Below the pieces are notes generated by a model. The model searched no databases, had not been told where the DNA came from, and worked only from the letters and a program-made list of their open reading frames with translations. The position numbers were made by a program, and so were the translations under genes. DNA of 64,000 nucleotides from a virus, in IMG/VR virus record IMGVR_UViG_3300021197_001350, positions 10,398-74,397 of that record. One strand, given 5' to 3'. Positions 3,001-48,669 of the stretch are shown here, piece by piece; the stretch's first letter is position 1, and each line of letters starts with the position of its first letter.

Positions 3001-6000
3001 CGCCTTCTCGCCAGCAGTAAACTCTGGGCCTTTAAGCCATGAAAGAAATGGTGGCAAAGTTTCATTATCTCTAGCGATAAACTGCTCCATCTTAACTCTC
3101 AAGTATTTCTCCGAAAGATCTGCCGCTATCATGGGATCAAAGCCAGCTGCTTCAGCTACCGCTCTGTATATCTGATAGAATACCTCTCTGATTTTTCTTA
3201 TTACAGCCCGAATGGTTCCCTTCTTTATGTTAGTGTCGGCTAAGTTTTTAGCTACAGTTTCAACTAGCACCTCTTCGGCTGACTCAATTTCCCTAAGCTG
3301 ATCCAGGCTAAGCTTGCCCTCATCATACTTATTCCTAGCCCTCTCCATCCTTTTCTTGAGATGCTTATTCCCAAACTCCTTACTGGTCTCATGTATAGCA
3401 TTCAGTAAAGCCTGCCTGTCCATCTCTGGAAGGCTATCCAAAACGAAGTGGGTGGACTCATGGTATAGTGATAAAATATTTGTTCCGTCTGGTCTAAGGA
3501 GGTCATTCATTACCATCCTTATAATGGTGTCGGCTTCATTCGTTGATATCTCTGCATTGTTTGCATGGAGAAACCCATAAACACTCTCCATGTTTTTCTT
3601 AAACAACTGCACATCAACACCGCTCTTACTTAAAGCTTCAAGGAGTTGCGTAAAGTCTCTATCTAGTTCTATAGATTTTGATATCTCATGGTTGGTGTCA
3701 CTTATCCTACGCTTAACTTTTCCTTCTCTAGCTTCTGCTATTCTCTTGGCTCTATTGTTTACGCCATACGCCGACCGCTCGGAGGCAGGTAGGGGTGATG
3801 GCATCCAAGTTCCTTCACTTCTAAGTTCCTTCTCCGCCTGAATATAATCATTCTCTGTCACCTTTACTTCGGGTGACTCCTCGACCTCTTCTATAATCTC
3901 ATCTGATTGTATAGGTGTTGAGTCGGCTATGCTTTTATTCTGTGCATCAACAGCTGCTTCAGCTACTTTTATTAAATGCTCTGCGGGGCTAGAATTGTTT
4001 TGCGTAATTGAAATAAATACATCATCCCACATAAGGAAGTCCGATGGAAGTCGTGCATCAATTAGGGTATTTATTCTTGCAAGTATTGCATCCTTATCCG
4101 CCCCATTAAAAAGATTTGCCAAGTCCTCTGGAGACCTAGGCACATAATCTTTTCTTATGAGGGTAAGAAACCTGTCAAGCTGCCTCACTGTTAGATTGCG
4201 ATTTAATAGTACGCTAGCTATTTTTGGCACAGATTGAATGATCTCAGATCTTGGAGTATCCAGTTGGCTCTGCCTGGTTCCAGTTGAACCTGTCTTTATA
4301 GGCTCAACCCAATCCTTGTAGTCGGTTAAAGTCTTCCATGTTTTTTGCTCAGGATAACCATTGAGAGAGTCAATAGTTTTATCCTCACCCTTCATAAACT
4401 TCTCTAGTCTTATTACTGATATAGGCTTATAACCTGCATCAATAACATCCTGAAGTTTTGCGGGCTTGTTTGATCTTGATAGCTCAATATTATTTTTACT
4501 ATTAAGCATACCCAACACGCCAAGTGATCCTGCGGCAGATGAACCCTTCCTTGTGTCTGAGGTAAAATCTGAAAGGCCAGACATAACTATACTACCATCA
4601 GGGGACTCTAAGATTATAACACCTCTAGTCCTATACCTATCACCCTTCTTGCCTCCTAGGTTAGTAGTAGAGCCATTGCCTCCAGTGTCCCTATCTCTGA
4701 GAGTCGTGATTATGGATGAAGCATCTTGCCCAGCTACATCTATCTCCGTTCCCACTGTTGCCCACTGTGGGTTTTGTCCAGCCTTCGTTCGATATACTTG
4801 TATTGCTGAGTCTGATTTAGGTACAACGATTGAGTCTGGGTTCTTTACTACCTCACCCGCTGGATTAACAACCTTGATTCTCCTGCCTGTGTGATCAGTG
4901 ATATAAGTGCCATTAGCATCTTTCAGTATAAGAAAAGCTATTGGTCTACTTCCCTGACCATCATCAAAATCTTTCGAGTACCCAAGGGGCTTGTTAGTCT
5001 TAGCTCCGCCAAGCCTTATCCCGTAGTAATATTTCCGAAGTGTACTCTTCTCGTAGGAGTTTGTGTTAAACAAAACTCCCATTGACATAATTTCCCCATC
5101 GGCATTCAGTGGATTCTGTAGATTGCCTGCCTTGGTAGCCCTATCAAACTGCTCCTTATTCATTAGCCCCTGAACTCCGAGGGCGGCGGAAACAGGATTG
5201 GATGCATCAACTGAGCCAGATATAGCTATACCCTGACCGCCCCTAGTCTTTCCATCTAGGTCGGTATACTCTCTCTTGGTTACAGGGTAAAAGAATTGCC
5301 ATGTTTTTGTGGAGGTAACACCTTCAACCACTTCATGCTGAACACTAATAGGCTCCCTCCTAAAGTTATTGTATATCTCAAGCACCCTTATCCTGTGCAG
5401 CTGCTTATTAGAAGCACCGCTTCCAACCCTACGCCTCAGGTCTTGAAGTATATCATCAGCTACCTCTAGTACCCAACGCTCAGTTGTTGTCTCTACCTCA
5501 CTAAACTCTTCCTTAATAAGCTTCGTAAGCTCTTCGGGTGTTATGAATCCCTCATTAAAGTCCTGCGTTTTACTGCGGATGTCATCTACTATAGTCTTCT
5601 TCCTTGCATTATAATCTCTACCATCCTTTGACTTATAGCTCTTAATGGATCCAATGTCATCTATCTCTGTGACGCTATACTCATCCACCTGACCTGTTGG
5701 ACTACTGTGCTGTAACTTAGCACCCTTTCTTTTGGCTCCACCTCGTTGGGCTTTAACTACTTTCTTTTGCTTATCGCTATCCTGCTTCTTTATTGATGCA
5801 GTTTTTTGCGGTGAGTCTGGCTCATTGCCTAACAATCTATCTAGCTTTACTAGGGGATCAGATAGATCAATACCTTTGGCGTGATCAAGCTCCCTTTGTG
5901 CTGCACCCTGTAGTGCCTTTGCGTCCTTAAGTTTACTCTCTCTTGCTGCGAGTGGAGTGACAGATACTAACGCATCCTTGCCTGTCTTTTTGACCCTACC

Positions 6001-9000
6001 TTGTGAAGCCTGATCAACCTCAGCTTGAGCTACACGCACTGCCTCATTAGCTTTTTCTAAATCTTCTTGAGCCTTGGCAATTCTACGCTGATCAATCTTG
6101 GGGGCGGCCTTCTTCTTCTTAGGCTTAGGAGTGTCTTCTATATCCTCGTACTCGTCTTGATCTTCAGCTTGGGTAGTTGCTGGCTTTGGAGTACCTTTCT
6201 TAAAGTTCTCTATCTCCTGCTCGATACCCTTTAGCTTCTTCCTTTGCTCTTCTATCTTAACCCTGTGAGCCTTATACTTCTTAGAGTTTGCTGACTTAAA
6301 TTTACCGCCATTCTTTTGGGTTCTGCCTTCCGCTACAAGCTTGTTTAGTTTTGCCTTAGCAGCTTTCTTTTGATTAACTAAACTCTTAAGTTTTTTCGCG
6401 AGCTGATCCTTTGACTCTGTTGGTTTCTCAGGGTCTTTTTCAATTCCCTGCAACTCTTCTAGCAGTGATTCACTACCCTTTTGTGTTCTTCTTTTCGACC
6501 GAATAATTGGAGAAACAGATTCGGGTCGCTCCTTCTTTACTCTATCAGCAGCTAATTCTCTTGCACGCTTTTCTATAGCAGCGTCCTGATCTAGTTCAGT
6601 ATCAATCCCTATGTCTGCAACTTTTTGTTTAGTGATCGCTTCAAATCGCTTCTTTGCTTTTTCCGCTATTTGATCCCAGCTTAGCTTCTTAATCGCTCCT
6701 TCAAAGGATCGAGTGCCTGGATCGGGAAGTATACCAAGATCGTTATACCGATCATTGACTTCATTAAATATAGCCTTACCGTCCCATGCGCCATCAAGGT
6801 AGTAGCCAGACTGTAATCTATTTATGAGAACCTCTAGATCATATACCTGCTTTTGATCTTTCGTACTTAGCTTGGCGTATTCTTTTGTCTTTGTGTAAGA
6901 TATATTGCCTCCGCCATCCTCGATTAGAGTTCGAGTAAAATCAATGCCTTGACCTTCCACCTCATCTCTTGCCTGCCTATACTCTTCCTCGGTTGGCTCA
7001 GACTCTTTATCTTTAGCGATAGCTTCATCTAGGGAACTAAAGTCTGTCGTGGTCTTTGTTTGTTCTATCCCTATCTCTGCAGCACTTTCTGCGGTAACAG
7101 GAATATTCTCTATGCCCGCGAGGGTTGCTAGCTCATAGCGATGATTGCCATCCTTGATCTCATAGAAAGCTTCACCCGTAGCATCCTTTAAGGCTTTGTT
7201 GTGACTAACCTCAATGGGATTACTCTTCAGGAAACTTAGCAACTTTTGCTTGTTTTCTGGATCGGTAAGTAATCTCTGCAAGTCTTCAACTGTTCCAATC
7301 TCACCCTTTTGCACAGGGTATCCATTAGGATTCTTAAGCCCTATATATACAGCTAGATCAACAAGCTGACCCATCTCAGGTTTATTCGCACGGGATATCT
7401 GTGCATCCTCTTCAGCTATAGCTTTCTGGAAGCTGAAGGTCTGTACCACATCAGCACTCTCGGTACTCTCTGTTGGCTCAGTAACTTCTTCTTCTGTTAT
7501 TAAATTGGTCTCGGCATTGGGAAACTTTTCTAAAAGTTTTTCTACCTCAGCAAGCCTTGCGTTTGCATCGTAGTCAGGGTCAAGCCTTGCGTCACCTTGC
7601 GCAAGCATATCAGGCGGATTGGCTAGATCTTGTTCAATGCTATCACGCTCCCGCTCAAGAGCTTCCCTTTCTCTTTGCCTCTCCTGATTCCTTCTCTTTT
7701 CTTCAGCCTCAATAAAAGGCCCGAACTCGGCTGTAGCGGATTCAGTGCGAACATCTGCTTCAGCCTGTAGGTCAGCTTGACCTTGAGCAGAAGCCTGCTG
7801 AACCCTCATTAAATCTTCCGCAGTAGGCACACCAGTTATACTCTCAGTTGGTATAGTTACAACTGGCCCAGTCCTGCCAATGCCCGCTACTTCCCCAGAG
7901 AAATCGAAGTCTAGTATAGGCTCAATAGATGTACCCTCTCCTGTAGTCCTGACAACCCTACCTATTTGGGGCGTACCACTACTTCCAGTATAGCTAACAA
8001 TAGCACCTTGCTTAGATGTATCTATAGTTTGATCTGAATAGGATGATGTGCTTGAGCTTAAATCAGTTTGATCAGGTGCGGGAGGAGTAGACCCCTTACC
8101 TACAGCTGTAAGTCCACCACCTATGGAACCTGCAACTGCACCAATTATACTGGCATTAATTACCTTAGATTTTGTAAAGTCATCCCACTCTACATCCTCT
8201 CCTCTTTCCCATTTAGGAGCAGCCGTATTAATAAATTCCTGAAAACCTTCAGTGCTTCCTTCTAAGGCCATACCTATGCCAACCTTGCCTAGGGTTGAAT
8301 CCTTTGACCTCTGGACTTGCTTACCAAGCCAAGTTAAAGCTCCATCCTTAACAGCCTGAGATTCTCCCATTAAGTTGGCTCGCTTAAGGAATGAACGACC
8401 AACCCATGCGGGTAGTATTGAATCAGGTAATGCCGCTATACTTCCATACGCAAGTGCAGGTGCTTGAGCCTCTTCATGTGAAAAACCATCACCACGAAGT
8501 GTGTTGTATATCTCGCCACTATTTAAAGCCAGTGAGTTTAAAGTTGAAGCACCTATGCCGCCTCTCATTTTCCATAGCTGAGCTGCGTAGTCTTCAACAT
8601 CCATGATCTCGCCAGCCCGCTTTCTCCCCTCAAGGACAGCCTTGTGACCAACACCATATGTTGGATTCTTTCGAGTAACTTTCTGAGCCATAGACTTCCG
8701 CAAGTCTTGCCTCATCTTAGATGCCACGCCTTTCTTTACGGCTGCCTTACCTGAATAGATTGCTGCAGCTCCTGTTCCTGCTGTACCGCTACCAATAAAG
8801 TAAGCGGCTACACCCTCCACGAGGGATGGTATAGCTTGACCTAATATATTCGCAGAGTACTCGCGTAAAGCTCTACCACTTATCCCATTAGCTCTAAATA
8901 AATCTTCATACTTTCTTACTGATGCCCTGGGTGCATTTGTCTGCAGATCAACACCCCACTGGAATGCGGCCTCACCGCCTGGCAATCCTGTCATACCATA

Positions 9001-9375
9001 GCCACCAGACATTGAACCAACCATTCCTCGGGTTGCTTTATTGAGTCCACCACCGAACTCATCAAGCATACCACTGTCTTGACTTTGAAGATCGAGATCT
9101 AAATAGTCATCTCTAAACTCAGGGTTAACGGACTCTGCAACCAACGCACGCATCCCTGCGGATCCTTCGCTCGCCTGAGTATTTCGTAACTGATCGCCAA
9201 TGAATGCGGTTAGCTCACTATCTGACCGTGGATCATATGTTCCTTGCTCAGCAAGTTTAGCTCTATACTTTGCAACAAGCTCATTGGTTCCCGTCCTGCC
9301 GTCAAGCTTGCTAGGCAGATCATTCTGCCTAATCTCACTATATAGGCGGTTGATCTCGTCTGGAGACTGAGCCAT
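1..9375 (-). CDS. Giant virion/ejection polyvalent protein (>=3125 aa, 3' end outside window) with two zincin HExxH motifs and an ART-PolyVal-like domain
   Basis: ATG at 9375 overlaps the upstream TAA (TAATG) and begins MAQSPDEINRLY. All spot translations were stop-free down to base 1, and the track has no minus-strand ORF here, consistent with no stop in the window. Motifs: LYHESTHF (3448-3462), LGHELTHH (2482-2496) followed by YGLTDVREFISEARNNPQF, and WRLVRTPSFRNFYGDW...EPRFIFHG...GVFLS...PIYL...GVIIRD...VKS (about 1707-715). Confidence 0.9.
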   Translation of the reverse strand, partial: MAQSPDEINRLYSEIRQNDLPSKLDGRTGTNELVAKYRAKLAEQGTYDPRSDSELTAFIGDQLRNTQASEGSAGMRALVAESVNPEFRDDYLDLDLQSQDSGMLDEFGGGLNKATRGMVGSMSGGYGMTGLPGGEAAFQWGVDLQTNAPRASVRKYEDLFRANGISGRALREYSANILGQAIPSLVEGVAAYFIGSGTAGTGAAAIYSGKAAVKKGVASKMRQDLRKSMAQKVTRKNPTYGVGHKAVLEGRKRAGEIMDVEDYAAQLWKMRGGIGASTLNSLALNSGEIYNTLRGDGFSHEEAQAPALAYGSIAALPDSILPAWVGRSFLKRANLMGESQAVKDGALTWLGKQVQRSKDSTLGKVGIGMALEGSTEGFQEFINTAAPKWERGEDVEWDDFTKSKVINASIIGAVAGSIGGGLTAVGKGSTPPAPDQTDLSSSTSSYSDQTIDTSKQGAIVSYTGSSGTPQIGRVVRTTGEGTSIEPILDFDFSGEVAGIGRTGPVVTIPTESITGVPTAEDLMRVQQASAQGQADLQAEADVRTESATAEFGPFIEAEEKRRNQERQREREALERERDSIEQDLANPPDMLAQGDARLDPDYDANARLAEVEKLLEKFPNAETNLITEEEVTEPTESTESADVVQTFSFQKAIAEEDAQISRANKPEMGQLVDLAVYIGLKNPNGYPVQKGEIGTVEDLQRLLTDPENKQKLLSFLKSNPIEVSHNKALKDATGEAFYEIKDGNHRYELATLAGIENIPVTAESAAEIGIEQTKTTTDFSSLDEAIAKDKESEPTEEEYRQARDEVEGQGIDFTRTLIEDGGGNISYTKTKEYAKLSTKDQKQVYDLEVLINRLQSGYYLDGAWDGKAIFNEVNDRYNDLGILPDPGTRSFEGAIKKLSWDQIAEKAKKRFEAITKQKVADIGIDTELDQDAAIEKRARELAADRVKKERPESVSPIIRSKRRTQKGSESLLEELQGIEKDPEKPTESKDQLAKKLKSLVNQKKAAKAKLNKLVAEGRTQKNGGKFKSANSKKYKAHRVKIEEQRKKLKGIEQEIENFKKGTPKPATTQAEDQDEYEDIEDTPKPKKKKAAPKIDQRRIAKAQEDLEKANEAVRVAQAEVDQASQGRVKKTGKDALVSVTPLAARESKLKDAKALQGAAQRELDHAKGIDLSDPLVKLDRLLGNEPDSPQKTASIKKQDSDKQKKVVKAQRGGAKRKGAKLQHSSPTGQVDEYSVTEIDDIGSIKSYKSKDGRDYNARKKTIVDDIRSKTQDFNEGFITPEELTKLIKEEFSEVETTTERWVLEVADDILQDLRRRVGSGASNKQLHRIRVLEIYNNFRREPISVQHEVVEGVTSTKTWQFFYPVTKREYTDLDGKTRGGQGIAISGSVDASNPVSAALGVQGLMNKEQFDRATKAGNLQNPLNADGEIMSMGVLFNTNSYEKSTLRKYYYGIRLGGAKTNKPLGYSKDFDDGQGSRPIAFLILKDANGTYITDHTGRRIKVVNPAGEVVKNPDSIVVPKSDSAIQVYRTKAGQNPQWATVGTEIDVAGQDASSIITTLRDRDTGGNGSTTNLGGKKGDRYRTRGVIILESPDGSIVMSGLSDFTSDTRKGSSAAGSLGVLGMLNSKNNIELSRSNKPAKLQDVIDAGYKPISVIRLEKFMKGEDKTIDSLNGYPEQKTWKTLTDYKDWVEPIKTGSTGTRQSQLDTPRSEIIQSVPKIASVLLNRNLTVRQLDRFLTLIRKDYVPRSPEDLANLFNGADKDAILARINTLIDARLPSDFLMWDDVFISITQNNSSPAEHLIKVAEAAVDAQNKSIADSTPIQSDEIIEEVEESPEVKVTENDYIQAEKELRSEGTWMPSPLPASERSAYGVNNRAKRIAEAREGKVKRRISDTNHEISKSIELDRDFTQLLEALSKSGVDVQLFKKNMESVYGFLHANNAEISTNEADTIIRMVMNDLLRPDGTNILSLYHESTHFVLDSLPEMDRQALLNAIHETSKEFGNKHLKKRMERARNKYDEGKLSLDQLREIESAEEVLVETVAKNLADTNIKKGTIRAVIRKIREVFYQIYRAVAEAAGFDPMIAADLSEKYLRVKMEQFIARDNETLPPFLSWLKGPEFTAGEKAGTLTRVRDPHLIPDLLNPVTGDLKNVELTPSSPTAIVVNRHNQTTGKETRYTTEVRAGLNDSLWAEFGDKELTVSELTAFAENDTLSNLYRDMNKTGLIAPDIRILNKSTMSRLFQGKVAQYHYAAGLARPVIFISKDFGIASAIPTNETEKSRYLEIQKNALAEILGHELTHHITESVFVEAEMSGRIAQAQFGGKARQAKADWVSLFEAAKRFSNDPMQYGLTDVREFISEARNNPQFQAYLKTIPLPNNLSKRFKIKGRIWDGLGYAMGRVVQPKASIHALTGALMKQTLEIGALNKRSRVRVDPVMKVLSDPTITPEEKILYTLEGFAVNSIISRMPSVSNRKTLNEAQSINIEETTIIDEQEVPMHYLETTDQGQDYLGERLLPNKRYLLSQPRSQKNPTPPLSEVKNPMIAIMEGEGKRPADEDMWRLVRTPSFRNFYGDWMLGFQGVEGENPTTEVGFFRHAQTNEPRFIFHGRSSQSHRRSVTVTDDNIGVNLPAPSSQIISGKKTDIGGGQLDPDISDNELEYFSSIDAGKDGGNEADDTKYGVFLSLTARPAVGWSESLQAHRGLSQDALRVTLRQRYLKSYFENFSMAGTSSQAKLILDDEIMTNEGLNNLAPIYLTSVISSSEATIDESELYPVPSSLLSGSILEEEFTEGYVYDEITGEPSLSQNVHHKNTGKDGWGYPVHKKNKAIGRMFYLPGVVSAPHENLVSNGVIIRDISNVKHYATVTNDKEPMGMIAIEGKDGQLSYFRVKSDLYSDPDLGVVQTRITRNGLISGEVEPASVASPESLKAYMFSGEVSAEALGKHLEEVSHEEFTAHASYMGEQMNTLLEASVENVQRSLTGTSFTAEVNSIPSSQTLLQTEDKVADLESGIPTSSQNNPTWQDAANRYDVDVRDLIEYQGGLVYYDTSLSERHKNALRKEAKKYNKRLVESDEAINSNLVPTTDSIQVPILDENMFTEGMILPLFTSAKNPLMINEEGVQNQQYGNSAS

Positions 9376-39345: not shown

Positions 39346-40635
39346 ATGATTGGATCTAATTTAAGCGAGAATGATTATGAAAGCGGAGTCCTCAGCTCAT
39401 GCCTGAGAGACATACAATGGCCCACGGCTTATAGCCGAGCTTGTGACATAATATCCCCTGAGCATTTTGCAGATGCTAACAAGGGTAAAGTGTTTGAGGT
39501 GATGGGTAAGTTAACCGAGCCACCTGATGAATTTGTATTAGCTAATGAATCAGGAGTAGACATGATAGACATAATGGGTTGGTGCGAAAGGACAGAGACA
39601 TCAACTTATGTAGTCACCTTTGCCGAAGGAGTTATGAAGTGCTGGTCTAAAAGACAGGCAGAGCATATCGCTAGGGAAGTAATGGATAAGGTTTCCAACC
39701 AAGAGGATCCCAACGAGATCCTCTCTAACGCAAGTAAAAGAATTACGGATGCCCTTGGGTCTCATAGCAATGAGATTAAAGAAGTGCATGATGGCATAGA
39801 TGAAACCCTACAGAATTGTTATGACCTTGATGAGGGTAAGGTGGAGCCAGGAATAAACACAGGGTTGCCTGACTTAGATAAGGTCTTAGGTGGTTTCAAG
39901 GTGGGAGAGTTTGCAACTATAGCCGCCCGACCCTCACATGGTAAGACGGCATTGGCATTATCCATAGCGGCTAATATAGCATCCACTGGCAAGAAGGTTT
40001 TATTCTGTAGCCTTGAGATGACAACTGAACAGCTGAGAAAAAGATTAATGCACGCTGAGGCACGAGTACCTATTATCAATAGACCCAATCACTACAATGG
40101 TGAAGACAGGCATAAGCTTGAAGATGCGGTTGGTAGGATTAAGGGTTGGAGCCTAAAGGTGGATCAGACTTGTGGAGTCACAGTACCTTATCTCCTTTCA
40201 AAAGCAATGGCTGAGAAAACACGGAACGGACTTGATATACTATTCATTGATTACATTGGTATAATGAATGGGCCAGGCAAGGATATATACGAGAGGGTAT
40301 CAGGGATATCCCGTGGCATTCAGCAAATAGCAAAGAAGGTTGAGATACCTGTGGTTGCATTATCCCAACAGAACAGGGATTCCGAAAAGGACAACAATGC
40401 AAAGATGAGTCACCTTAGAGACTCAGGTAGTGTAGAGCAGGATGCCGATCAGGTGATCATGCTTAGGCGTTCTAAGGATATGGGCGATAAGCCTTTTGAA
40501 CCCGTAGAGATAATGGAAGTGACCATCGCCAAGAATCGGAATGGTTGCACAGGTAAAATACCCTTGACATTTTGTAGAAGCTTTGCACGATATGAAAGCA
40601 CAGCGAAAGAAAACAGCGAACCCAGATTAAACTAA
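39346..40635 (+). CDS. dnaB: Replicative DNA helicase
   Basis: AARPSHGKT, SLEM, IDYI, LSQQNR, LRDSGSVEQDAD, KNRNG. Confidence 0.97.
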   Translation: MIGSNLSENDYESGVLSSCLRDIQWPTAYSRACDIISPEHFADANKGKVFEVMGKLTEPPDEFVLANESGVDMIDIMGWCERTETSTYVVTFAEGVMKCWSKRQAEHIAREVMDKVSNQEDPNEILSNASKRITDALGSHSNEIKEVHDGIDETLQNCYDLDEGKVEPGINTGLPDLDKVLGGFKVGEFATIAARPSHGKTALALSIAANIASTGKKVLFCSLEMTTEQLRKRLMHAEARVPIINRPNHYNGEDRHKLEDAVGRIKGWSLKVDQTCGVTVPYLLSKAMAEKTRNGLDILFIDYIGIMNGPGKDIYERVSGISRGIQQIAKKVEIPVVALSQQNRDSEKDNNAKMSHLRDSGSVEQDADQVIMLRRSKDMGDKPFEPVEIMEVTIAKNRNGCTGKIPLTFCRSFARYESTAKENSEPRLN

Positions 40636-41349: not shown

Positions 41350-41813
41350 GGCGTTAACGCCTCCTGAGGCAGTATATAGGCTTCGGGTGCGTCTTCTGAT
41401 AGTTTCCCTATGTTGACCTCTTTAAGGAAGTCCTCGGTCTTTATATAGCCCCTTAAGGTCATGTGTGGTGGATTACCTGTTACCAGCACATAGTAGTCAC
41501 TGTCCCTAGGTGAGGCTTTCAATCTAGCTACAAGCTTACCAGAGTGATAGCGAGTTGTTTTAACTTCAACTCTATTTCCCTGAGGTGACCTTAAATCAAA
41601 GCCGCCGCTGCGTGATCTTATACTAAGATCAGGGAAAACATTCATCACCTTAGCTACAGCTACCTCTCCAGCCATACCGACATACTCTACTTCAAAGTCA
41701 TCTTCTTCGGATATCTTCTGGTTGGGTACGCCGTCTTTTCTGGATATGGCAGTTCTTGCTTTGGCAACCTGCTTAATTAATTCGTCTTCTATTTCGTTTA
41801 ACTTTACTTTCAC
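41298..41813 (-). CDS. PD-(D/E)XK nuclease-fold protein
   Basis: GMAGEVAVAK...GFDL...VEVKTT. Confidence 0.65.
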   Translation of the reverse strand: MKVKLNEIEDELIKQVAKARTAISRKDGVPNQKISEEDDFEVEYVGMAGEVAVAKVMNVFPDLSIRSRSGGFDLRSPQGNRVEVKTTRYHSGKLVARLKASPRDSDYYVLVTGNPPHMTLRGYIKTEDFLKEVNIGKLSEDAPEAYILPQEALTPWSSAQSKQEPSTSSSS

Positions 41814-41833
41814 TTACTCTTTCGCTTATGGGT

Positions 41834-42007
41834 TTAACTCGCTTCCCCAAGTTTTTCAGGGGGCATATACTCTAATACACCAGATGGATCCCTACTAGTC
41901 AAGCGGATGAATACATCCAGCACCTCAAGTAGGTCACAAGTAGGTATAGAATCGTCAACAGATAACTCTATATCCTGTCCACCGCCCTCCCATTTTAAAG
42001 TAATCAT
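41834..42007 (-). CDS. Hypothetical 57-aa protein (not in track)
   Basis: MITLKWEGGGQDIELSVDD...; ATGA overlap with the upstream gene. Confidence 0.5.
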   Translation of the reverse strand: MITLKWEGGGQDIELSVDDSIPTCDLLEVLDVFIRLTSRDPSGVLEYMPPEKLGEAS

Positions 42008-42315
42008 TCCCATCCCAGGTTCTCAGTCTCCACTTTACCCCAGCATGAACCTTTTGTCATAGCAAGGAATGGTGTATAGCAACCGCAACCCATCTTTTTA
42101 TTCCATAATGGGCGGCACTGTCGTAGATCTTTATTATATATTGGGCATTTCATACAGGTACGCAATCGCGTACGCCATCTTTTCCTACCCACTCCTAGCA
42201 TAAAACCCTTATGCAGCATCTTAAATAGGGGGAGGATTCCATTTGCACCACCCTCAAGTTTGACGATGGCCCACCATTCTCGGAACCTAGAAGGCTTTAA
42301 GCCCAGTATCTTCAT
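42004..42315 (-). CDS. Cys-rich hypothetical protein
   Basis: RLRTCMKCP...C...GCGC; start placed at MKILG just after the promoter. Confidence 0.65.
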   Translation of the reverse strand: MKILGLKPSRFREWWAIVKLEGGANGILPLFKMLHKGFMLGVGRKRWRTRLRTCMKCPIYNKDLRQCRPLWNKKMGCGCYTPFLAMTKGSCWGKVETENLGWE

Positions 42316-42325
42316 GCTGTACGGC

Positions 42326-42354
42326 ATACTACCCTTAAAGTACATGAATGTCAA
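42326..42354 (-). promoter_or_regulatory. Sigma70-like leftward promoter
   Basis: TTGACA-N17-TAGTAT on the minus strand; gives a near-leaderless mRNA for ATG 42315. Confidence 0.65.
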
Positions 42355-42496
42355 GTATATACAAAGTAAAGCCACAAGGGGGTTAATATATTTCAGATTC
42401 TTGGAAACTAGAGAAACGGTATATATATACTGATATCACATCGCGTGCGTTCCCCCCTCCCCCCGCCCCCCAACTATACAAGTGCAGTTGTATAGC

Positions 42497-42536
42497 ATGA
42501 CAGCCGTAAACCCTTGAATGACAGCCAGTTGCTAGG
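42497..42536 (+). repeat. ATGACAGCC direct-repeat pair, copy 1
   Basis: ATGACAGCC at 42497 and 42518 (21-bp period), then AGTTGCTAGG. Confidence 0.85.
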
Positions 42537-42628
42537 TTGAATTTCGATTGTCGAATTTCACTGAGTCATTGGATGTCACCTCTCCAACCGCTCGGAACTA
42601 CACTCAGAGGTGAAGGAGGAAATGCAAA

Positions 42629-43033
42629 ATGCAAAACCCATTCGCAAACGATAACACCCATCCGCAAGAAAAGACCAACATCGCTCCTCTCCTTACAGGA
42701 GATAAGTTAATCACTCTGCTAGCAAAGCTAGCTGAGAAGGGATTGATGGAGTGGGACGCTGAGCGTAGCTTAGCAATGGTTGCAAAGCGTGTGTTAACAC
42801 AGACAGCAGGAAGCACTGAGGAAGCTCAAGGACTTCGTGGTTGGCTTTCAAGCCAAGGCTTCAGAGGTTCCCGTAGAAGCAGAAGCTTCTACCTTTCTCT
42901 CAGCGACTTGGAAAGTCGTGGCGTTACCATCACCGATGGTAAACCACAAGTTTGTGAACCAAAGGTTCAACAGGCTAAAGGTCGTAGCAAAGCTACACTG
43001 AACTTTTCCGACATCATGGGGCTTACTGAGTAA
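42629..43033 (+). CDS. Early hypothetical protein
   Basis: AAGGAGG SD; followed by a terminator. Confidence 0.8.
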   Translation: MQNPFANDNTHPQEKTNIAPLLTGDKLITLLAKLAEKGLMEWDAERSLAMVAKRVLTQTAGSTEEAQGLRGWLSSQGFRGSRRSRSFYLSLSDLESRGVTITDGKPQVCEPKVQQAKGRSKATLNFSDIMGLTE

Positions 43034-43044
43034 GCCTTGTGATT

Positions 43045-43084
43045 GGGGTAGCCCTTCGGGGCTACCCTACCTTTTTTTTCTTTT
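43045..43084 (+). terminator. Rho-independent terminator (cUUCGg)
   Basis: GGGTAGCCC-TTCG-GGGCTACCC then TACC and a T-tract. Confidence 0.85.
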
Positions 43085-43117
43085 CGTTCAACAACAACAA
43101 CATAGGAGGATATATAT

Positions 43118-43726
43118 ATGTCTATCGACACAGCAGTATCAGCAACATCAACAATACAAACACCATCCAATATGGATGATGCAGATTGGAGTCACTTTCG
43201 TAAGCTCGACAAGTTAGAGCTTGATTGGTCACCTCGTTCCATCTTGGATCATCTCAAGATTAGCCCTAACACTGTCCGTAGGATATTGGGCTACTCCGAG
43301 ACCAAGGTGGCTAATGCTGAAAGGCATCTTCGTTATAAGTCTTCAACTTATAAGCCACAACCTTGCAGTTATGTTGTCCGTCCCATAAGGGAGGATGAGA
43401 TAAATGGTGAGGATGTTAGGATGAAAGTGGTTGACTACTATGATGGTGACAGGGTTAAGCCTGGCTATAAGCCATCACCACTAAAGGTTGACCGAGGTGG
43501 TATAGGTTATGAGGATGCCTTCTACGAAGCAGTAGGTTTGGGAGGTGACAAACATAGATTTCCAATCGTTGATGTTGAACAGGGTAATGATGATGAAGTT
43601 GCCACTATGTCTTACGAACATAAGACAGGTGGTGCTATAAGCTTCGTCAAGAAAGCAGTAGCCAAGATGACTCGCCGTAGGAACTACGGAACTTGCTTGT
43701 CTACTATCAGTCCTTACAGATCGTAA
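43118..43726 (+). CDS. Early protein with HTH-like motif
   Basis: WSPRSILDHLKISPNTVRRIL; CAA-rich leader with AGGAGG. Confidence 0.7.
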   Translation: MSIDTAVSATSTIQTPSNMDDADWSHFRKLDKLELDWSPRSILDHLKISPNTVRRILGYSETKVANAERHLRYKSSTYKPQPCSYVVRPIREDEINGEDVRMKVVDYYDGDRVKPGYKPSPLKVDRGGIGYEDAFYEAVGLGGDKHRFPIVDVEQGNDDEVATMSYEHKTGGAISFVKKAVAKMTRRRNYGTCLSTISPYRS

Positions 43727-44207
43727 GGCTGAACCGACCCACTTGGGGGTCGTTAAACATACCAAGACACTTTTTCGGATGGTAGTATGGCTACTATGCT
43801 TCGCCAAAAGCATGGAGAAATCCAAGTTATGAGGTTAGGAAGATTGACCACGGCATCCATATGGATGACTAGGTTGGCTTACTCATGGTAACCCTATCTA
43901 TGGGGTTTGATACCGAGGCTGAGTCTCATGTCGTTGATTATTCAGTCGGGCTTTATATGCATAGATTATCCTGTAATACAGGGTGTCGGTCTCTCCTTCA
44001 TGAGAGGCATAGGAATCCCAAGTATAGATGAACGATCTATTGAGGCTTATCACCTTTCTATACTCCAAGATCAGGCATAGGGGATAACAGCATCGTGGTT
44101 TACCAGTCGGTGCTAAGGTGGGGATCATCGTATGGTGTGACCACCAAGAACGGGGACAACATTTATACGGAGGGTTGTCATGCAGTATGGCGGTAGGGGG
44201 CTATACT
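43727..44207 (+). ncRNA. Putative large structured ncRNA, module A (~480 nt)
   Basis: No credible ORF; more than 12 nested helices with G-U pairs on the plus strand (e.g. 43917-24/43940-47, 43908-14/43982-88, 44021-28/44057-64, 44184-91/44200-07). Confidence 0.6.
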
Positions 44208-44219
44208 AATATTTACTTT

Positions 44220-44344
44220 TGAACAACGATATACATCACGCTGCAGATGGTCACTATATCGGGGTCGGTTTGGTAAGAGCTTGGACTAGTGACGGCTAGT
44301 CTACATTACCTTAACTCTCGGTGTTAGAGAGGCTGACCTGTTCA
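44220..44344 (+). ncRNA. Putative structured ncRNA, module B (~125 nt)
   Basis: Closed by TGAACA/TGTTCA; internal CGATATA/TATATCG, GGTCGGT/GCTGACC, GGTAA/TTACC, GACTAGT/GCTAGTC, CTCT/AGAG; followed by a T-tract. Confidence 0.6.
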
Positions 44345-44374
44345 TACCTTTTTTTATTTACATTTTCAAAGAAA

Positions 44375-44413
44375 ATGACAGCCGAAAATTGGCGAATGAC
44401 AGCCAGTTGGTAG
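44375..44413 (+). repeat. ATGACAGCC direct-repeat pair, copy 2
   Basis: ATGACAGCC at 44375 and 44396 (21-bp period), then AGTTGGTAGG. Confidence 0.85.
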
Positions 44414-44500
44414 GGCGAGCAGTTGATTTGCTGTTTCACTTGTGTATTATATTTATAAAATCAATGGATGCTTCCGCATCCATGTGTTGGAGGAACTGCT

Positions 44501-44608
44501 ATGAAGATAAAGATACGGAAGCCTATATTGTTTACCAAGTCTAGACCATTCAAGGTTAAGGCTAAGGTGTTGCATCGTAAGATGAAATACAAGGAGAGGC
44601 TAGCTTGA
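44501..44608 (+). CDS. 35-aa highly basic peptide within the RNA array
   Basis: GGAGGA SD; MKIKIRKPILFTKSRPFKVKAKVLHRKMKYKERLA. Confidence 0.6.
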   Translation: MKIKIRKPILFTKSRPFKVKAKVLHRKMKYKERLA

Positions 44609-44643
44609 TAGGGCAAGCAAATAATCCCTAACAATTTACTTTT

Positions 44644-45039
44644 GATGGATTGATCATCCATCATGGGACGCTAGTAGAAGTCACAACCTTAGTGACACTA
44701 GCACTCATGTCCGAGTGATGCTCGGGGTCAACGGCTAAGTAGCTGAGGCTAGGTGAAGGACACCGATGTAGGGTAACGCCTACCATGAGGTACTGATCTG
44801 ACAATCCTATAAACTGAACTATAGGTATGTCTCCTGCAGGTGAGGGTTCACAGCCCAAGTCCTGTCATTGTCGCATAATAATGGACTTAGGAACATAGTG
44901 CGAACAAGGTCTGCAATGTTGCAGGTTCAACGAGCAAGTGCTTGAGAACGGGTTAAACACCTACCAAGTTGCGGAGATATCATGTCGTTAACTAAGGATC
45001 AGTTGGGAGAAGGCTGAAGAGTAATCTCCCCCCGACCAT
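44644..45039 (+). ncRNA. Putative large structured ncRNA, module C (~395 nt)
   Basis: GATGGAT/ATCCATC, GCTAGT/ACTAGC, GTAGG-GTAA-CGCCTAC, CCTATA/TATAGG, AAGTCC/GGACTT, CTGCAA/TTGCAG, long-range ACTGATCT/GGATCAGT, GGGAGA/TCTCCC. Confidence 0.6.
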
Positions 45040-45046
45040 TTTACTT

Positions 45047-45179
45047 TAGCCGTGTGGCAAGTTCGTTGTAAAAAGAACTAGAATGATGAGTTGGTAGAAC
45101 AGAACGCTCTGCAAGAAAATCTACCATGAAATAGTGCGAATCATAGGGTAACGACCTTGAGGCCAATCATCCACGGCTA
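45047..45179 (+). ncRNA. Putative structured RNA, module D (~133 nt)
   Basis: Closed by TAGCCGTG/CACGGCTA; internal AGTTC/GAACT, TGGTAGA/TCTACCA, AGG-GTAA-CGACCT. Confidence 0.6.
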
Positions 45180-45211
45180 TTCATTTTCACCAACAATAAC
45201 AAGGAGGAAAT

Positions 45212-45490
45212 ATGAATGACGATACATTAAGACAAGCGGTAAGAATGAAGCAAGGTATTGAATGCCTTAGCATAAGAGATCTCAACAAGTTAGTAGGTGC
45301 TTATATACTAGGCACTCAACCTAGCTATATTGTTAGGTCTGCTATCAGTGATGTCGCTAAAGAAGAGTTCGTCAAGGAGTATGGAAAGGCTCAGCTATCT
45401 TGGGTAGATAATGCCGAGCAATACTCCAAAGGTACGGAAGCCAACTTCATCCTGGAGTCAATGCATGGCGACAGGATAGAGCGTTTATAA
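45212..45490 (+). CDS. Early hypothetical protein
   Basis: AAGGAGG SD. Confidence 0.75.
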   Translation: MNDDTLRQAVRMKQGIECLSIRDLNKLVGAYILGTQPSYIVRSAISDVAKEEFVKEYGKAQLSWVDNAEQYSKGTEANFILESMHGDRIERL

Positions 45491-45498
45491 TACCCATA

Positions 45499-45529
45499 AG
45501 TCTGACGGGGCAGACTATAAACAACCCCG
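45499..45529 (+). promoter_or_regulatory. H-type pseudoknot in an intergenic leader
   Basis: S1 AGTCTG/CAGACT, L1 = A, S2 CGGGG/CCCCG, L3 ATAAACAA. Confidence 0.55.
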
Positions 45530-45571
45530 ACTATTTATTTCTAATCAACAATAACAAAACAAGGAGGATAT

Positions 45572-45943
45572 ATGTTAAAATCAAAACCATTCGCAGGGCT
45601 TAAGACAGGCAAGGATACAGAGGGTCAAACCTTTTTCAAGTTCGATGCCAACCATAAGCCTAAGCAGTTTAAGCCAAGGCGTAAGCGTAACAAACCAAGG
45701 TTTGCTTTCGTGCTTCAGGCTTTCGATGGTGAGAAATGGAAGGTGATCCGCAAAGATGGATTGCTTATTCACTCCAAGTCATGCAAGGAGGTACGGACTA
45801 AGGAGTTTGTTAAGTGTCTACAAGATGGAGGCTTTGTATCTCAGATGAAGATACAAGTATTCGGTAAGCGTAGCATAACTGACAAGGAATTCTTTTCAAC
45901 CCCCGTCAGATGGAGGAGTATCGATGCCGTATCAATCGTCTGA
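45572..45943 (+). CDS. Early basic hypothetical protein
   Basis: AAGGAGG SD; K/R-rich. Confidence 0.75.
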   Translation: MLKSKPFAGLKTGKDTEGQTFFKFDANHKPKQFKPRRKRNKPRFAFVLQAFDGEKWKVIRKDGLLIHSKSCKEVRTKEFVKCLQDGGFVSQMKIQVFGKRSITDKEFFSTPVRWRSIDAVSIV

Positions 45944-45956
45944 AACAAACAAACAA

Positions 45957-45986
45957 GGCAGGGGGGAGGTATACTTCCCTCCTGCC
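45957..45986 (+). terminator. Strong hairpin (terminator or stabiliser)
   Basis: GGCAGGGGGGAGG...CTTCCCTCCTGCC; weak U-tract. Confidence 0.5.
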
Positions 45987-46021
45987 CACTTTAAACTAAC
46001 ACCAAGAGAAAGGATAATATT

Positions 46022-46288
46022 ATGGATGATAGCAGGCTCACCAGTGCAGAAGAAAAAGCATTAGATATTATGCTCACAGCAGAGCGTAACTTTTATATGC
46101 AGTTCATTAAGAGTAAGAGTGGTGCATTCTGCAACACGGAGTATGAACTTGATGGCGAGTATATCAATGTGAAGATAACACATGGTGTACAGAATGATGC
46201 GGAAGACACGAAGGATGTAGTCTGTGATAGGTTAGTGCGATCCACAATGAAGTGGGATAATGAAAACGGAGAACAAGGAGGATATTAA
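46022..46288 (+). CDS. Hypothetical protein
   Basis: AAGGA SD, operon position. Confidence 0.7.
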   Translation: MDDSRLTSAEEKALDIMLTAERNFYMQFIKSKSGAFCNTEYELDGEYINVKITHGVQNDAEDTKDVVCDRLVRSTMKWDNENGEQGGY

Positions 46289-46289
46289 T

Positions 46290-46370
46290 ATGAGTATCGA
46301 TGGATTGATTGTCTATGGTTGCTTTGCAATCGGATGGCTAGCAGTGGTCATTGATATGTTTACACAATGA
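46290..46370 (+). CDS. 26-aa membrane peptide
   Basis: AAGGAGG SD; MSIDGLIVYGCFAIGWLAVVIDMFTQ; ATGA overlap with next gene. Confidence 0.55.
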   Translation: MSIDGLIVYGCFAIGWLAVVIDMFTQ

Positions 46371-46636
46371 AACTACATAGAGATTTAAGTAAGGACGAAG
46401 AGCCAGAGTTCAGGCAATGGGCAAGGGACAACTTCAAGTTCTTTAATACGAACGATTACAAGAAGCATATCGGTTCAACATGGCATCCTGCAGTGCAGGA
46501 TGAGTGTGAAAAGATGAGGCTTGAGTACAAGATGGGACTGAAGATGCGACTAGCAGGTGTACCATCTAAGGATGTTGAGTCACATATTCGTGCCATGAGG
46601 CAGGGATACGAGGTAATGAATAACACTATAGTATAA
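46367..46636 (+). CDS. Hypothetical protein
   Basis: EFRQWARDN...WHPAVQDEC; translationally coupled. Confidence 0.75.
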   Translation: MKLHRDLSKDEEPEFRQWARDNFKFFNTNDYKKHIGSTWHPAVQDECEKMRLEYKMGLKMRLAGVPSKDVESHIRAMRQGYEVMNNTIV

Positions 46637-46887
46637 TGGAATTAAGTTTTAATAACAACATGACACCAGGGCAGAACTTTCTGCGTATGGCTGTCGAATT
46701 ACAGGAGGAAAAGAAAGTGGAGAGACGATATACAAATCTGCTACTCGATCTAGTTCAAGATGGCTCACTAGATAAGGATCATGTCATCAATGCATTCATT
46801 AAGTATATGTCAGAGGATGATGTGCAGGACATGATGGAGTATAACGAATTCATTGAGCCTGATCAACTAGATAAGGAGGTAGAATAG
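46636..46887 (+). CDS. Hypothetical protein
   Basis: TAATG coupling. Confidence 0.7.
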   Translation: MELSFNNNMTPGQNFLRMAVELQEEKKVERRYTNLLLDLVQDGSLDKDHVINAFIKYMSEDDVQDMMEYNEFIEPDQLDKEVE

Positions 46888-46889
46888 AT

Positions 46890-47261
46890 ATGGGGTTAGA
46901 TCAATTTGCATATGCAAAGAAGGGTGACGAGAAGCTAGACATTATGACATGGCGTAAGCATCCTAACTTGCAAGGTTACATGGAGGAATTGTGGGAGTCA
47001 AAGGATAGACCACTACCTGAAGACTCAGAGATTGACGAGGGTAATATTATGGGTGACTTCAATTGCATACCTGTGTCCCTCACTATGGAGGACATTGAGG
47101 AACTTGAAAGCTGTATGAAAGATGACAAGCTACCTCATACTAGTGGGTTTTTCTTTGGTGAGTCAGCGGATTGGCACAAGGAGAGTGATGAAGAGTTTAT
47201 AATCCTAGCCAAGAAGTATCTGCTTGATGGGTATGAAGTATATTATGACAGCTGGTGGTAA
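46890..47261 (+). CDS. Conserved phage protein (MGLD...WRKH...GFFFG...YDSWW family)
   Basis: Recognisable widespread early-phage motif set; function unknown. Confidence 0.85.
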   Translation: MGLDQFAYAKKGDEKLDIMTWRKHPNLQGYMEELWESKDRPLPEDSEIDEGNIMGDFNCIPVSLTMEDIEELESCMKDDKLPHTSGFFFGESADWHKESDEEFIILAKKYLLDGYEVYYDSWW

Positions 47262-47267
47262 GTATTT

Positions 47268-47432
47268 ATGTGGGTCAAAGTTGAGCAAGGAAACTTCTCC
47301 AATTGGTACGATGTTCGTGTCAATGGGGAGCTTATTAACAACGCAAAATCTAAAGCTGAAGCTGACAAGATAGCCGAAGTTATTAGAAGTAAATCAAAAA
47401 CAAGGAGGAGATATGGCAAAGTGGTCAGATAG
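47268..47432 (+). CDS. 54-aa hypothetical protein (not in track)
   Basis: MWVKVEQGNFSNWYDVRVNGELINNAKSKAEA; fills the operon gap. Confidence 0.55.
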   Translation: MWVKVEQGNFSNWYDVRVNGELINNAKSKAEADKIAEVIRSKSKTRRRYGKVVR

Positions 47433-47643
47433 TTATCACAATGGAGTAGTCGATGGTGCAACAGCTATCACTAGTCTGATTGATGGTATGGTGCTAGGAA
47501 GTATGTCGGCGCGGGATCGTGGTGGTGATCAGTGGAGATACAAACTAATAAGAACAATGGAGATAAGCATACTGCTTGAACTTAAGGAGAAGATTAAACC
47601 ACACTTAGTAAAGGAGGAATTAGGATATGGCAAAGAGGGGTAA
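47413..47643 (+). CDS. Hypothetical protein
   Basis: AAGGAGG SD. Confidence 0.65.
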   Translation: MAKWSDSYHNGVVDGATAITSLIDGMVLGSMSARDRGGDQWRYKLIRTMEISILLELKEKIKPHLVKEELGYGKEG

Positions 47644-47959
47644 AGCGAAAGAGGATAAGCGATTTAATGAGGGGTTTCAGAGTGGGCTAGAGTTTGGTAA
47701 GTCAAGGGCATTCTATTTGCTAAGGCAAATCAAGGAAGGCTTTGATGATGCCATCAATGATGCCACTATGTGGGACGATATGAGTGATGGTAAGGCAAAG
47801 AAGGCAACAGCTATGGTGCAAAGGGAGACGGCAGTGTTCATTACTACATACTTCCTAGACATATGGGATGATAATGGTGAGGAAGAGAAGATGCCTGACC
47901 AAAATTCAGCACCAAATATAGTACCATTTAAGGAGGAATCTACCGATGATGACACCTGA
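47627..47959 (+). CDS. Hypothetical protein
   Basis: SD upstream, overlaps neighbours. Confidence 0.65.
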   Translation: MAKRGKAKEDKRFNEGFQSGLEFGKSRAFYLLRQIKEGFDDAINDATMWDDMSDGKAKKATAMVQRETAVFITTYFLDIWDDNGEEEKMPDQNSAPNIVPFKEESTDDDT

Positions 47960-48164
47960 TATTGAGACCGAAGATTACTTTGGTATGTCACCGCAAGCAG
48001 TGCAAGAGATAATGCACAAGGAACACAAGTCACTGATAGATGCTAGGAATTACGCACAAGAGATGATGAAGGAAGCAGAAGGTGAGGACTGGTCTTACAA
48101 AGCATTTCATTATCTTGGTGCGGTATCAATATTAATAAGAGCAATAGATGAACAGGTTAAATAA
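47946..48164 (+). CDS. Hypothetical protein
   Basis: AAGGAGG SD. Confidence 0.65.
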   Translation: MMTPDIETEDYFGMSPQAVQEIMHKEHKSLIDARNYAQEMMKEAEGEDWSYKAFHYLGAVSILIRAIDEQVK

Positions 48165-48669
48165 TCAAACACTATTCGATATGGATGAATACACAGAGAA
48201 GGATCGTGTCGCTTCTGTAGCTAGGAGATTGTACTCCGAGTATAAAGATGTAAGACGACCCGATAGAACTAGGCTATGGAAAACTTACACTGCTATGCAG
48301 AGTGTACTTAGTGTAGCCATAAGAGAGAACGCTATCCCTTTCTTTAGTAAAGGTAGGGCTAAGTATTGTAAGGACAATGATGCTAGAAGATTCCTAGATG
48401 AGTATATCGATACAAGGATACACTCTAATGGTAACACTAGATCACCTATTGAGGAGATAGAAGTAGCGAAGCCAAGTAAGGTAAGATTTAATATTATCCA
48501 AAGGCTATTAGGGATTAACAAAATTGTTGGCTCAATCAATCACTTGGTTGATGTTCAACTCAGAATGCTGGAGCAAACCAATGAGCTTAATGAAGTATGG
48601 AAACCATCCTCTAGAAGCAACACTTCCAATGGATCAACTGTTGGAGCTGATGCGCAAGGAGGCAATTGA
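48148..48669 (+). CDS. Hypothetical protein
   Basis: 173 aa in operon. Confidence 0.6.
   Translation: MNRLNNQTLFDMDEYTEKDRVASVARRLYSEYKDVRRPDRTRLWKTYTAMQSVLSVAIRENAIPFFSKGRAKYCKDNDARRFLDEYIDTRIHSNGNTRSPIEEIEVAKPSKVRFNIIQRLLGINKIVGSINHLVDVQLRMLEQTNELNEVWKPSSRSNTSNGSTVGADAQGGN

Follow-up and report, generated by a model that had tools for sequence, protein, structure and literature searches.

What does a phage encode in a region of its genome that holds only one small gene? This question is raised by positions 43727-45190 of the DNA analyzed here, a window of 64,000 nucleotides (nt) taken from a 74.4-kb IMG/VR virus record (bases 10398-74397), which CheckV estimates to be 85% complete. A first-pass annotation, made from the letters of the sequence, had interpreted the region as an array of four large structured RNA modules. 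We found that the array encodes conserved structured plus-strand RNAs, at least three of which, and probably all four, fold independently. No catalogued RNA family covers these modules, referred to here as A to D, and they represent at least three new families. The four proposed module boundaries were supported by consensus folds on homologous sequences, and the modules are as follows.

43727..44211, plus strand: module A, a multibranch RNA of about 480 nt with a consensus fold on homologs
44220..44344, plus strand: module B, 125 nt, in which a closing stem is joined by a single hairpin arm and by a further stem bearing two hairpins
44643..45038, plus strand: module C, about 395 nt with a consensus fold, of a family common to the window phage and the jumbo phage G002
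45048..45179, plus strand: module D, 132 nt, consisting of a long closing stem and three hairpin arms

Homologous loci were fetched via the 202-amino-acid (aa) protein that flanks the array (ORF202, where ORF denotes open reading frame) and its relatives. L003 is about 96% identical to the window and carries the modules. L009 derives from a 36-kb metagenome contig, encodes a relative of the 202-aa protein with 73% identity, and holds the whole array. L011, whose protein relative is 46% identical, carries B and the small peptide gene of the array, and L007 is a contig end of the same lineage. Scans of IMG/VR with neighboring proteins recovered only the 96% relative and one contig end, and a protein scan of genome contigs gave no match. 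In 50,697 GenBank phage records, no DNA match to the array was found; the same collection held neither a protein relative of ORF202 nor a DNA match to the G002 copy of C. The terminase of the window phage reached a best identity of only about 25% among GenBank phages, and the phage appears to have no cultured close relative. G002 (IMGVR_UViG_3300021964_009390; 222,461 bp, CheckV-complete; C locus in L023/L024) was found by a degenerate 17-base word derived from diverged C-like fragments in one RNA run. Exact-word matches for the B core or C core in L012, L013, L022, L028, and L029 were dismissed as chance matches in GC-rich unrelated coding DNA.

The conclusion is carried by covariation. A pair was counted as compensatory if both sides had changed and pairing was kept, and slid partners served as the control. 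The alignments comprised three to four sequences per module, two of them near-identical.

Module C, 4 sequences: 28 of 123 pairs compensatory; slid controls, 0-4
Module A, 3 sequences: 12 of 130 pairs compensatory; slid controls, 0-1
Module B, 4 sequences: 6 of 40 pairs compensatory; slid controls, 0-1
Module D, 3 sequences: 1 of 30 pairs compensatory; no slid controls

For C, 98.8% of the cells were paired, 0 of 500 shuffles reached the observed values, and the long-range helices that close domain II were among those with compensatory changes. Covariation in homologs, which the first-pass annotation had named as a check on its proposal, was thus present in A (12/130), B (6/40), and C (28/123) and weak in D (1/30), the least secure of the four modules. 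The closing stems that it had pointed out in B and D fared differently: that of B gained one compensatory pair, whereas that of D is present but invariant. The relatives typically differ by gain, loss, or replacement of a whole hairpin, with the neighboring structure left undisturbed.

Folding energy contributed less. Single-sequence fold z-scores for the plus and minus strands were -1.5/-1.4 for A, -2.9/-2.8 for B, -3.7/-3.8 for C, and -2.6/-2.6 for D. Folding better than shuffles was therefore seen, at the modest level of -1.5 to -3.7, but the two strands scored equally and gave no strand signal. Because the z-scores are modest and strand neutral, the case rests on covariation and not on folding energy. 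The strand is indicated by G-U pairs, as had been argued before. They make up 11 to 14% of the pair cells in the structures of the modules, and reading the same structures on the minus strand would lower the paired cells from about 98% to 84 to 88%. One of the G-U helices cited for this argument, GGCTGAGT/ATTCAGTC, was recovered as the invariant helix 10 of A; by our reading of alignment A8, L009, which is 78% identical, keeps neither of the other two (TGATACC/GGTGTCG and AGTATGGC/GCTATACT). Since the genes, the sigma70-like promoter, and the T-run described below are all on the plus strand as well, the modules are best read as plus-strand RNA.

The region contains many mechanical ORFs, which reach 76 aa (minus strand) and 57 aa (plus strand). 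Only one of them is a real gene, the 35-aa ORF that the first-pass annotation had pointed out: at 44501-44608, it is the sole ORF of 43727-45190 that is conserved with synonymous changes. No codon periodicity is seen in A, B, or C, where substitutions fall about equally on the three codon positions (33/33/32 for C compared with its copy in G002), and indels are mostly of 1 to 2 nt and not multiples of 3. The coding control, ORF202, showed 77/39/27 substitutions by codon position and indels of 15, 9, and 3 nt. Coding under an alternative genetic code was ruled out by the lack of substitution periodicity and the indels of 1 to 2 nt.

To which known family could such RNAs belong? A covariance-model scan with Rfam 15 (4,227 families) gave nothing at gathering score over the whole window, and at an expectation value (E) of ≤10 over 43500-45400 it gave one chance-level match to a small nucleolar RNA (snoRNA). 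When the relatives were included, only chance-level snoRNA, small RNA, and leader matches appeared, all well below gathering scores. No match was obtained to RNase P RNA, group I or II introns, self-cleaving ribozymes, riboswitches, 6S, IMES, or the other marine motifs of Rfam 15. ARAGORN detected neither transfer RNA (tRNA) nor transfer-messenger RNA (tmRNA) in the window or L023. That the first-pass annotation did not recognize the modules as tRNA, tmRNA, RNase P, or an intron agrees with both the Rfam 15 and the ARAGORN scans. For ROOL (RF03087) and GOLLD (RF02032), the window and L023 gave no gathering-score match, and relaxing the threshold to E ≤ 10 in 43500-45400 and to E ≤ 5 in L009, L011, and L024 still gave none. 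For OMEGA and HEARO RNAs, no IscB or TnpB family was present among the adjoining ORFs (134, 202, 92, and 123 aa), and no Rfam match of HEARO or IS605 type was found. For retrons, the four ORFs flanking the array gave no reverse transcriptase match, in a scan that excluded the small ORFs at 45900-48200 and did not search for a1/a2 repeats. A description of the module C family was not found in the papers searched, which for the phage RNA survey of 10,006 candidates (PMC10690425) means the parts outside its candidate tables.

Module C comprises about 20 helices with near-invariant loops, laid out as follows.

44644-44662, plus strand: 5' hairpin
44664-44667 with 45031-45034, plus strand: 4-bp closing stem
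44670-44789, plus strand: domain I, inside the closing stem
44704-44709 with 44784-44789, plus strand: helix 5
44792-45003, plus strand: domain II, inside the closing stem
45005-45030, plus strand: near-invariant 3' hairpin, inside the closing stem

Counted from alignment A7, the identity of C between the window and L009 is about 92%, compared with 73 to 75% for the adjacent protein. A full-length copy, 75% identical, is present in G002, as shown by a pattern match and a BLAST alignment. A covariance model of domain II (R1; 210 positions, 64 pairs) scored 247.6 bits in G000 and 226.1 bits in G002, with one copy each and none in G001. These scores are partly a matter of construction, since both matching sequences are in the seed alignment, and the independent evidence is the pattern match and the BLAST alignment. 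G000 and G002 thus both hold a full-length R1 match, with helices kept by compensatory changes. The two phages are otherwise dissimilar: the DnaB of G002 is 27% identical to that of the window, and the neighbors of C in G002, namely, glycosyl- and sulfotransferases, a 68-aa protein, and a DnaB-like helicase encoded about 1.1 kb downstream of C, bear no resemblance to the neighbors of C in the window. Downstream of C, the two phages carry unrelated genes, so C does not move together with a gene under its control. Its occurrence beside unrelated genes in an unrelated phage speaks for a stand-alone exchanged RNA gene and against a leader for one gene.

The G002 copy shares its transcript with a small gene that follows it, and this transcript stops at a clear terminator. 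The copy is flanked by AAUUUA-type U-rich linkers similar to those of the window. Upstream of it come, in this order, a TTGACT-16-TATACT promoter, a GCCGC...GUGGC hairpin, and GTTCTTTCACAA (L024 1397-1466, equal to G002:C1 at about 69208-69277). The word GTTCTTTCACAA resembles boxA, and the order of promoter, hairpin, and GTTCTTTCACAA resembles the boxB/boxA of rrn leaders; this is a resemblance only. No boxA-like word was present in the window, the count of the 12-mer in G002 was not above the control, and its second occurrence in G002 lies inside a gene. About 280 nt of GC-rich noncoding sequence follow in G002, one part of which has a z-score of -3.2 and the other of +0.6.

Several features of C go beyond helix formation. 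Invariant single-stranded or loop segments are 16 to 21 nt long, and two look-alike hairpins (44725-44749 and 44925-44949) have the form CAACG-NNN-AAGU-NNN-UGAG with an AA/A internal loop. Their copies in G002 are nearly the same in stem sequence. Together, the invariant segments and the look-alike hairpins imply constraints beyond pairing, such as binding partners or tertiary contacts, and the two hairpins may be twin binding sites. In a single DNA contig, which is weak evidence, the subdomain enclosed by helix 5 is apparently lacking, with a joint from 44712 to 44784. In three sequences, the nucleotides after the closing stem (window 45031-45038 and its equivalents in L003, L009, and L023) read ACCA, CCCA, and CCCA, and in G002 they read AUCA; a hairpin directly abuts the 3' strand, a geometry like that of a tRNA acceptor. 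Readings of C as RNase P or tRNA-like, suggested by the GGUAACGCC loop, the two-domain layout, and the NCCA tail in three of four sequences, had no model support. A reading as a CsrA sponge was dropped, as the number of GGA motifs counted by eye was at about chance level.

The other three modules differ in how they vary. Module A begins directly after the stop codon of ORF202; one of its hairpins is variable and differs in L003 and L009. The lineage of L011 and L007 carries a different module of about 230 nt in place of A (L011 1648-1876; z = -4.1). In B, a 29-nt core is invariant across four sequences. One whole hairpin arm of D is cleanly absent in L009, and the 3' end of D lies 20 nt upstream of the Shine-Dalgarno site of the next gene in both the window and L009. 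Further insertions were observed in L009: a 140-nt insert after B (1830-1975) and an extra 168-nt module between C and D (2699-2866) with a TGCACC...GGTGCA closing stem and a z-score of -2.2. Paralogy of A with C or of B with D was considered and dropped, as only 10-nt chance matches and no second R1 copy were found.

How would these RNAs be transcribed? The array lies within a plus-strand block of replication-type genes that includes an exonuclease, a DnaB-like helicase (39346-40635), and further helicases. Gene direction switches about 1.3 kb before the start of the array, and the cumulative GC skew has its minimum at the same switch. A C-rich tract, with about 20 C in 24 nt, is located at 42443-42472 between the minus- and plus-strand gene blocks, at this minimum, and may be an origin or promoter region. 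At the other end of the window, a giant ORF of >3,125 aa on the minus strand (1-9375) runs past the window start. The features between and around the modules are the following.

43118..43726, plus strand: ORF202, a 202-aa gene with a weak helix-turn-helix (HTH) signal, whose transcript runs into A
44212..44219, plus strand: U-rich linker TTTACTTT before B
44349..44355, plus strand: T-run, seven T directly after the closing stem of B, conserved in L003, L009, and L011
44375..44404, plus strand: two ATGACAGCC boxes 21 bp apart, directly upstream of the -35 hexamer
44423..44450, plus strand: sigma70-like promoter TTGATT-16-TATTAT, a consensus match only
44464..44483, plus strand: hairpin in the 5' untranslated region (UTR), with an invariant stem and a loop that varies between relatives
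44501..44608, plus strand: gene for a very basic 35-aa peptide, with a Shine-Dalgarno site of its own; its changes in L009 and L011, where it is conserved, are mainly synonymous
44635..44642, plus strand: U-rich linker TTTACTTT before C
45040..45047, plus strand: U-rich linker TTTACTTT before D
45212..45490, plus strand: first downstream gene, 92 aa, with no family match

The first-pass annotation had envisaged a single polycistronic noncoding RNA (ncRNA) cassette. This part of its proposal was not borne out, since the T-run (44349-44355), the promoter (44423-44450), and the translated 35-aa gene lie between A-B and C-D. The layout suggests two transcription units instead: ORF202, A, B, and the T-run in the first and the promoter, peptide gene, C, D, and downstream genes in the second. 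The T-run, which was not called by a simple terminator scan, is probably the end of the first unit. Judging from the host-type promoters and the neighborhood of replication genes, transcription would be early or middle. A second pair of ATGACAGCC boxes, with the same 21-bp period, occurs at 42497-42536, so that each pair is just upstream of a unit carrying RNA modules. The boxes are conserved, with changes, in L009 and L011 and are likely a regulator binding site, perhaps for the HTH-like ORF202. The last approximately 36 codons of ORF202 are nearly invariant even at 44 to 46% overall identity, and a hairpin, CCTTACAGATCGTAAGG, spans its stop codon (window 43620-43745), where protein and RNA constraint may overlap.

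The linker word TTTACTTT occurs 10 times in the window compared with 3.4 expected, and three of these occurrences are exactly before B, C, and D; the same placement is found in L003 and L009. The 35-aa peptide, with about 13 Lys/Arg residues, had no Pfam match, and nothing like it is encoded near C in G002. Possible roles are those of an RNA-binding mini-protein, a leader peptide, or an arrest peptide.

Do the modules accumulate as RNA? Part of the array occurs in 20 of the 24 listed runs (19 studies), and the runs with it are marine, seawater, or estuarine. Six of the 20 are metatranscriptomes, which contain 14 to 19% of the words of the array. Three RNA runs from three studies, chosen because they contain the array, were compared with 41500-47500. 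As the mapping of metatranscriptomes had been suggested earlier as a check on expression, it is of note that contigs from all three studies fell on A (43796-44115) and C (44662-44974), but none fell on B or D. The peptide region and flanking genes were likewise without RNA contigs, whereas a DNA run covers genes too; as a comparison of contigs and not reads, this difference is a weak hint. In one RNA run, C fragments of the G002 type reached a word depth of 37 to 52 in a library of 117 million letters. Overall, the libraries give a hint of moderate strength, short of proof, that RNA of A and C builds up. Since C is common to unrelated marine phages and visible in ocean RNA libraries, its family is likely abundant and ecologically widespread.

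The best explanation of the locus as a whole, to which we give an even chance, is that two transcription units yield stable, trans-acting A and C RNAs and that C is a stand-alone gene exchanged or retained by unrelated marine phages. Host polymerase would read both units from sigma70-like promoters. The primary transcripts would probably be cut at the single-stranded U-rich linkers (AUUUACUUUU; the linker word also occurs as UUUACUUU), most likely by an RNase E-type endonuclease of the host, which would set the modules free. A and C would then accumulate as stable RNAs with a trans-acting role in the replication phase of infection, be it as scaffolds or decoys that bind proteins or as self-assembling RNA particles, and they would not be switches for adjacent genes. 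D, which abuts the next ribosome-binding site, may serve as a leader of its own transcript, and B, which abuts the T-run, may serve as a 3' end structure. Several observations weigh against this explanation. We infer linker processing, stability, early timing, and any partner, and L011 is without a TTTACTTT linker before B. The alignments are too few in sequences for statistics of the R-scape type, D is almost without covariation, and the fold z-scores do not separate the strands. The RNA evidence consists of assembled contigs at depths of 2 to 4, without strand or ends, from runs selected for containing the array. In both phages, moreover, protein genes follow C on its transcript, an arrangement that would permit a role as leader.

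This last point leads to the strongest rival, which we consider unlikely without dismissing it, namely, that the modules act in cis. C and D would together be a long leader that regulates the early genes downstream as a riboswitch, attenuator, or protein-binding operator, and A and B would form a 3' UTR that stabilizes or terminates the ORF202 message. The end of D 20 nt before a Shine-Dalgarno site in the window and L009 and the T-run directly after B would suit such roles, the G002 copy of C is also followed by a small gene and a clear terminator on its transcript, and the conserved 35-aa ORF could be a leader peptide. However, the genes downstream of C are unrelated between the two phages, and with 395 nt, about 20 helices, and an identity of about 92% compared with 73 to 75% for its neighbors, C is far more elaborate than known leaders. 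RNA contigs were also found on A and C and not on the adjacent coding parts of the same transcripts. Improbable, in our view, is a replication origin at which the transcripts are structured primer or R-loop RNAs, like ColE1 RNA II or the T4 origin transcripts. The array is indeed situated in the replication module, about 1.3 kb from the divergent strand switch with the lowest cumulative GC skew, and the C of G002 is about 1.1 kb upstream of a DnaB-like gene; however, the turn in GC skew tracks the change of gene direction, as in most phages. The modules showed no iterons, no repeats, and no AT-rich unwinding element, primer transcripts need neither about 20 covarying helices nor invariant loops, and a stable RNA would better account for the high representation in RNA libraries. 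That the region has no function and is a decayed coding region or a set of chance helices would agree with the modest, strand-equal z-scores, but is hardly credible: the copy of C in G002, the covariation, and the absence of codon periodicity already contradict it. Compensatory changes are far above the controls, and C is more conserved than the adjacent protein gene.

A bolder version of the trans-acting explanation can be offered tentatively, and we regard it as rather doubtful. A and C would be RNA subunits of a phage RNA machine or particle, either an RNA-only multimer of the ROOL or GOLLD type or a ribonucleoprotein with the 35-aa peptide or a host protein. C would move horizontally because it serves a general host-takeover or antidefense task, and the linkers would be dedicated processing or antitermination signals in an operon resembling rrn.

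The known large bacterial and phage RNAs without assigned function number only a handful (GOLLD, ROOL, OLE, raiA, and HEARO), and each has led to unexpected biology. The locus adds two large families, A and C, together with smaller companions, all absent from Rfam. Its arrangement of serial structured RNAs, a repeated linker, and a conserved mini-peptide is unusual for a phage and offers a tractable setting for studying how ncRNAs are made and processed. Concrete sequences are now at hand for cryo-electron microscopy, pulldowns, and covariance-model searches.

Three known systems invite comparison. Bacterial rrn operons carry several structured RNAs per transcript, separated by spacers and preceded by boxB/boxA antitermination leaders. 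The array resembles them in its serial untranslated structured RNAs behind host-type promoters and in the repeated spacer motif before modules, but the TTTACTTT linker is not a recognized boxA. The stable RNAs rnaC and rnaD of phage T4 (species 1 and 2), of about 120 to 140 nt and without assigned function, are cut from a polycistronic tRNA-cluster transcript. They are like the RNAs of the array in their multi-RNA precursor with short spacers, assuming that the array is processed as proposed. In contrast to the array, they lie among tRNAs, and the large modules of the array are 3 to 4 times bigger and accompanied by no tRNAs. The nearest kind to A and C is represented by ROOL and GOLLD, large ornate phage or prophage RNAs that assemble into multimeric cages made only of RNA (Kretsch et al. 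2025, PMC12286853). A (about 480 nt) and C (about 395 nt) are smaller and without a model match, and their companions in the array are small modules and a peptide gene instead of tRNA genes. Nevertheless, both groups are phage-borne RNAs of several hundred nucleotides without assigned function, and they share many-helix multibranch folds and strongly conserved loops.

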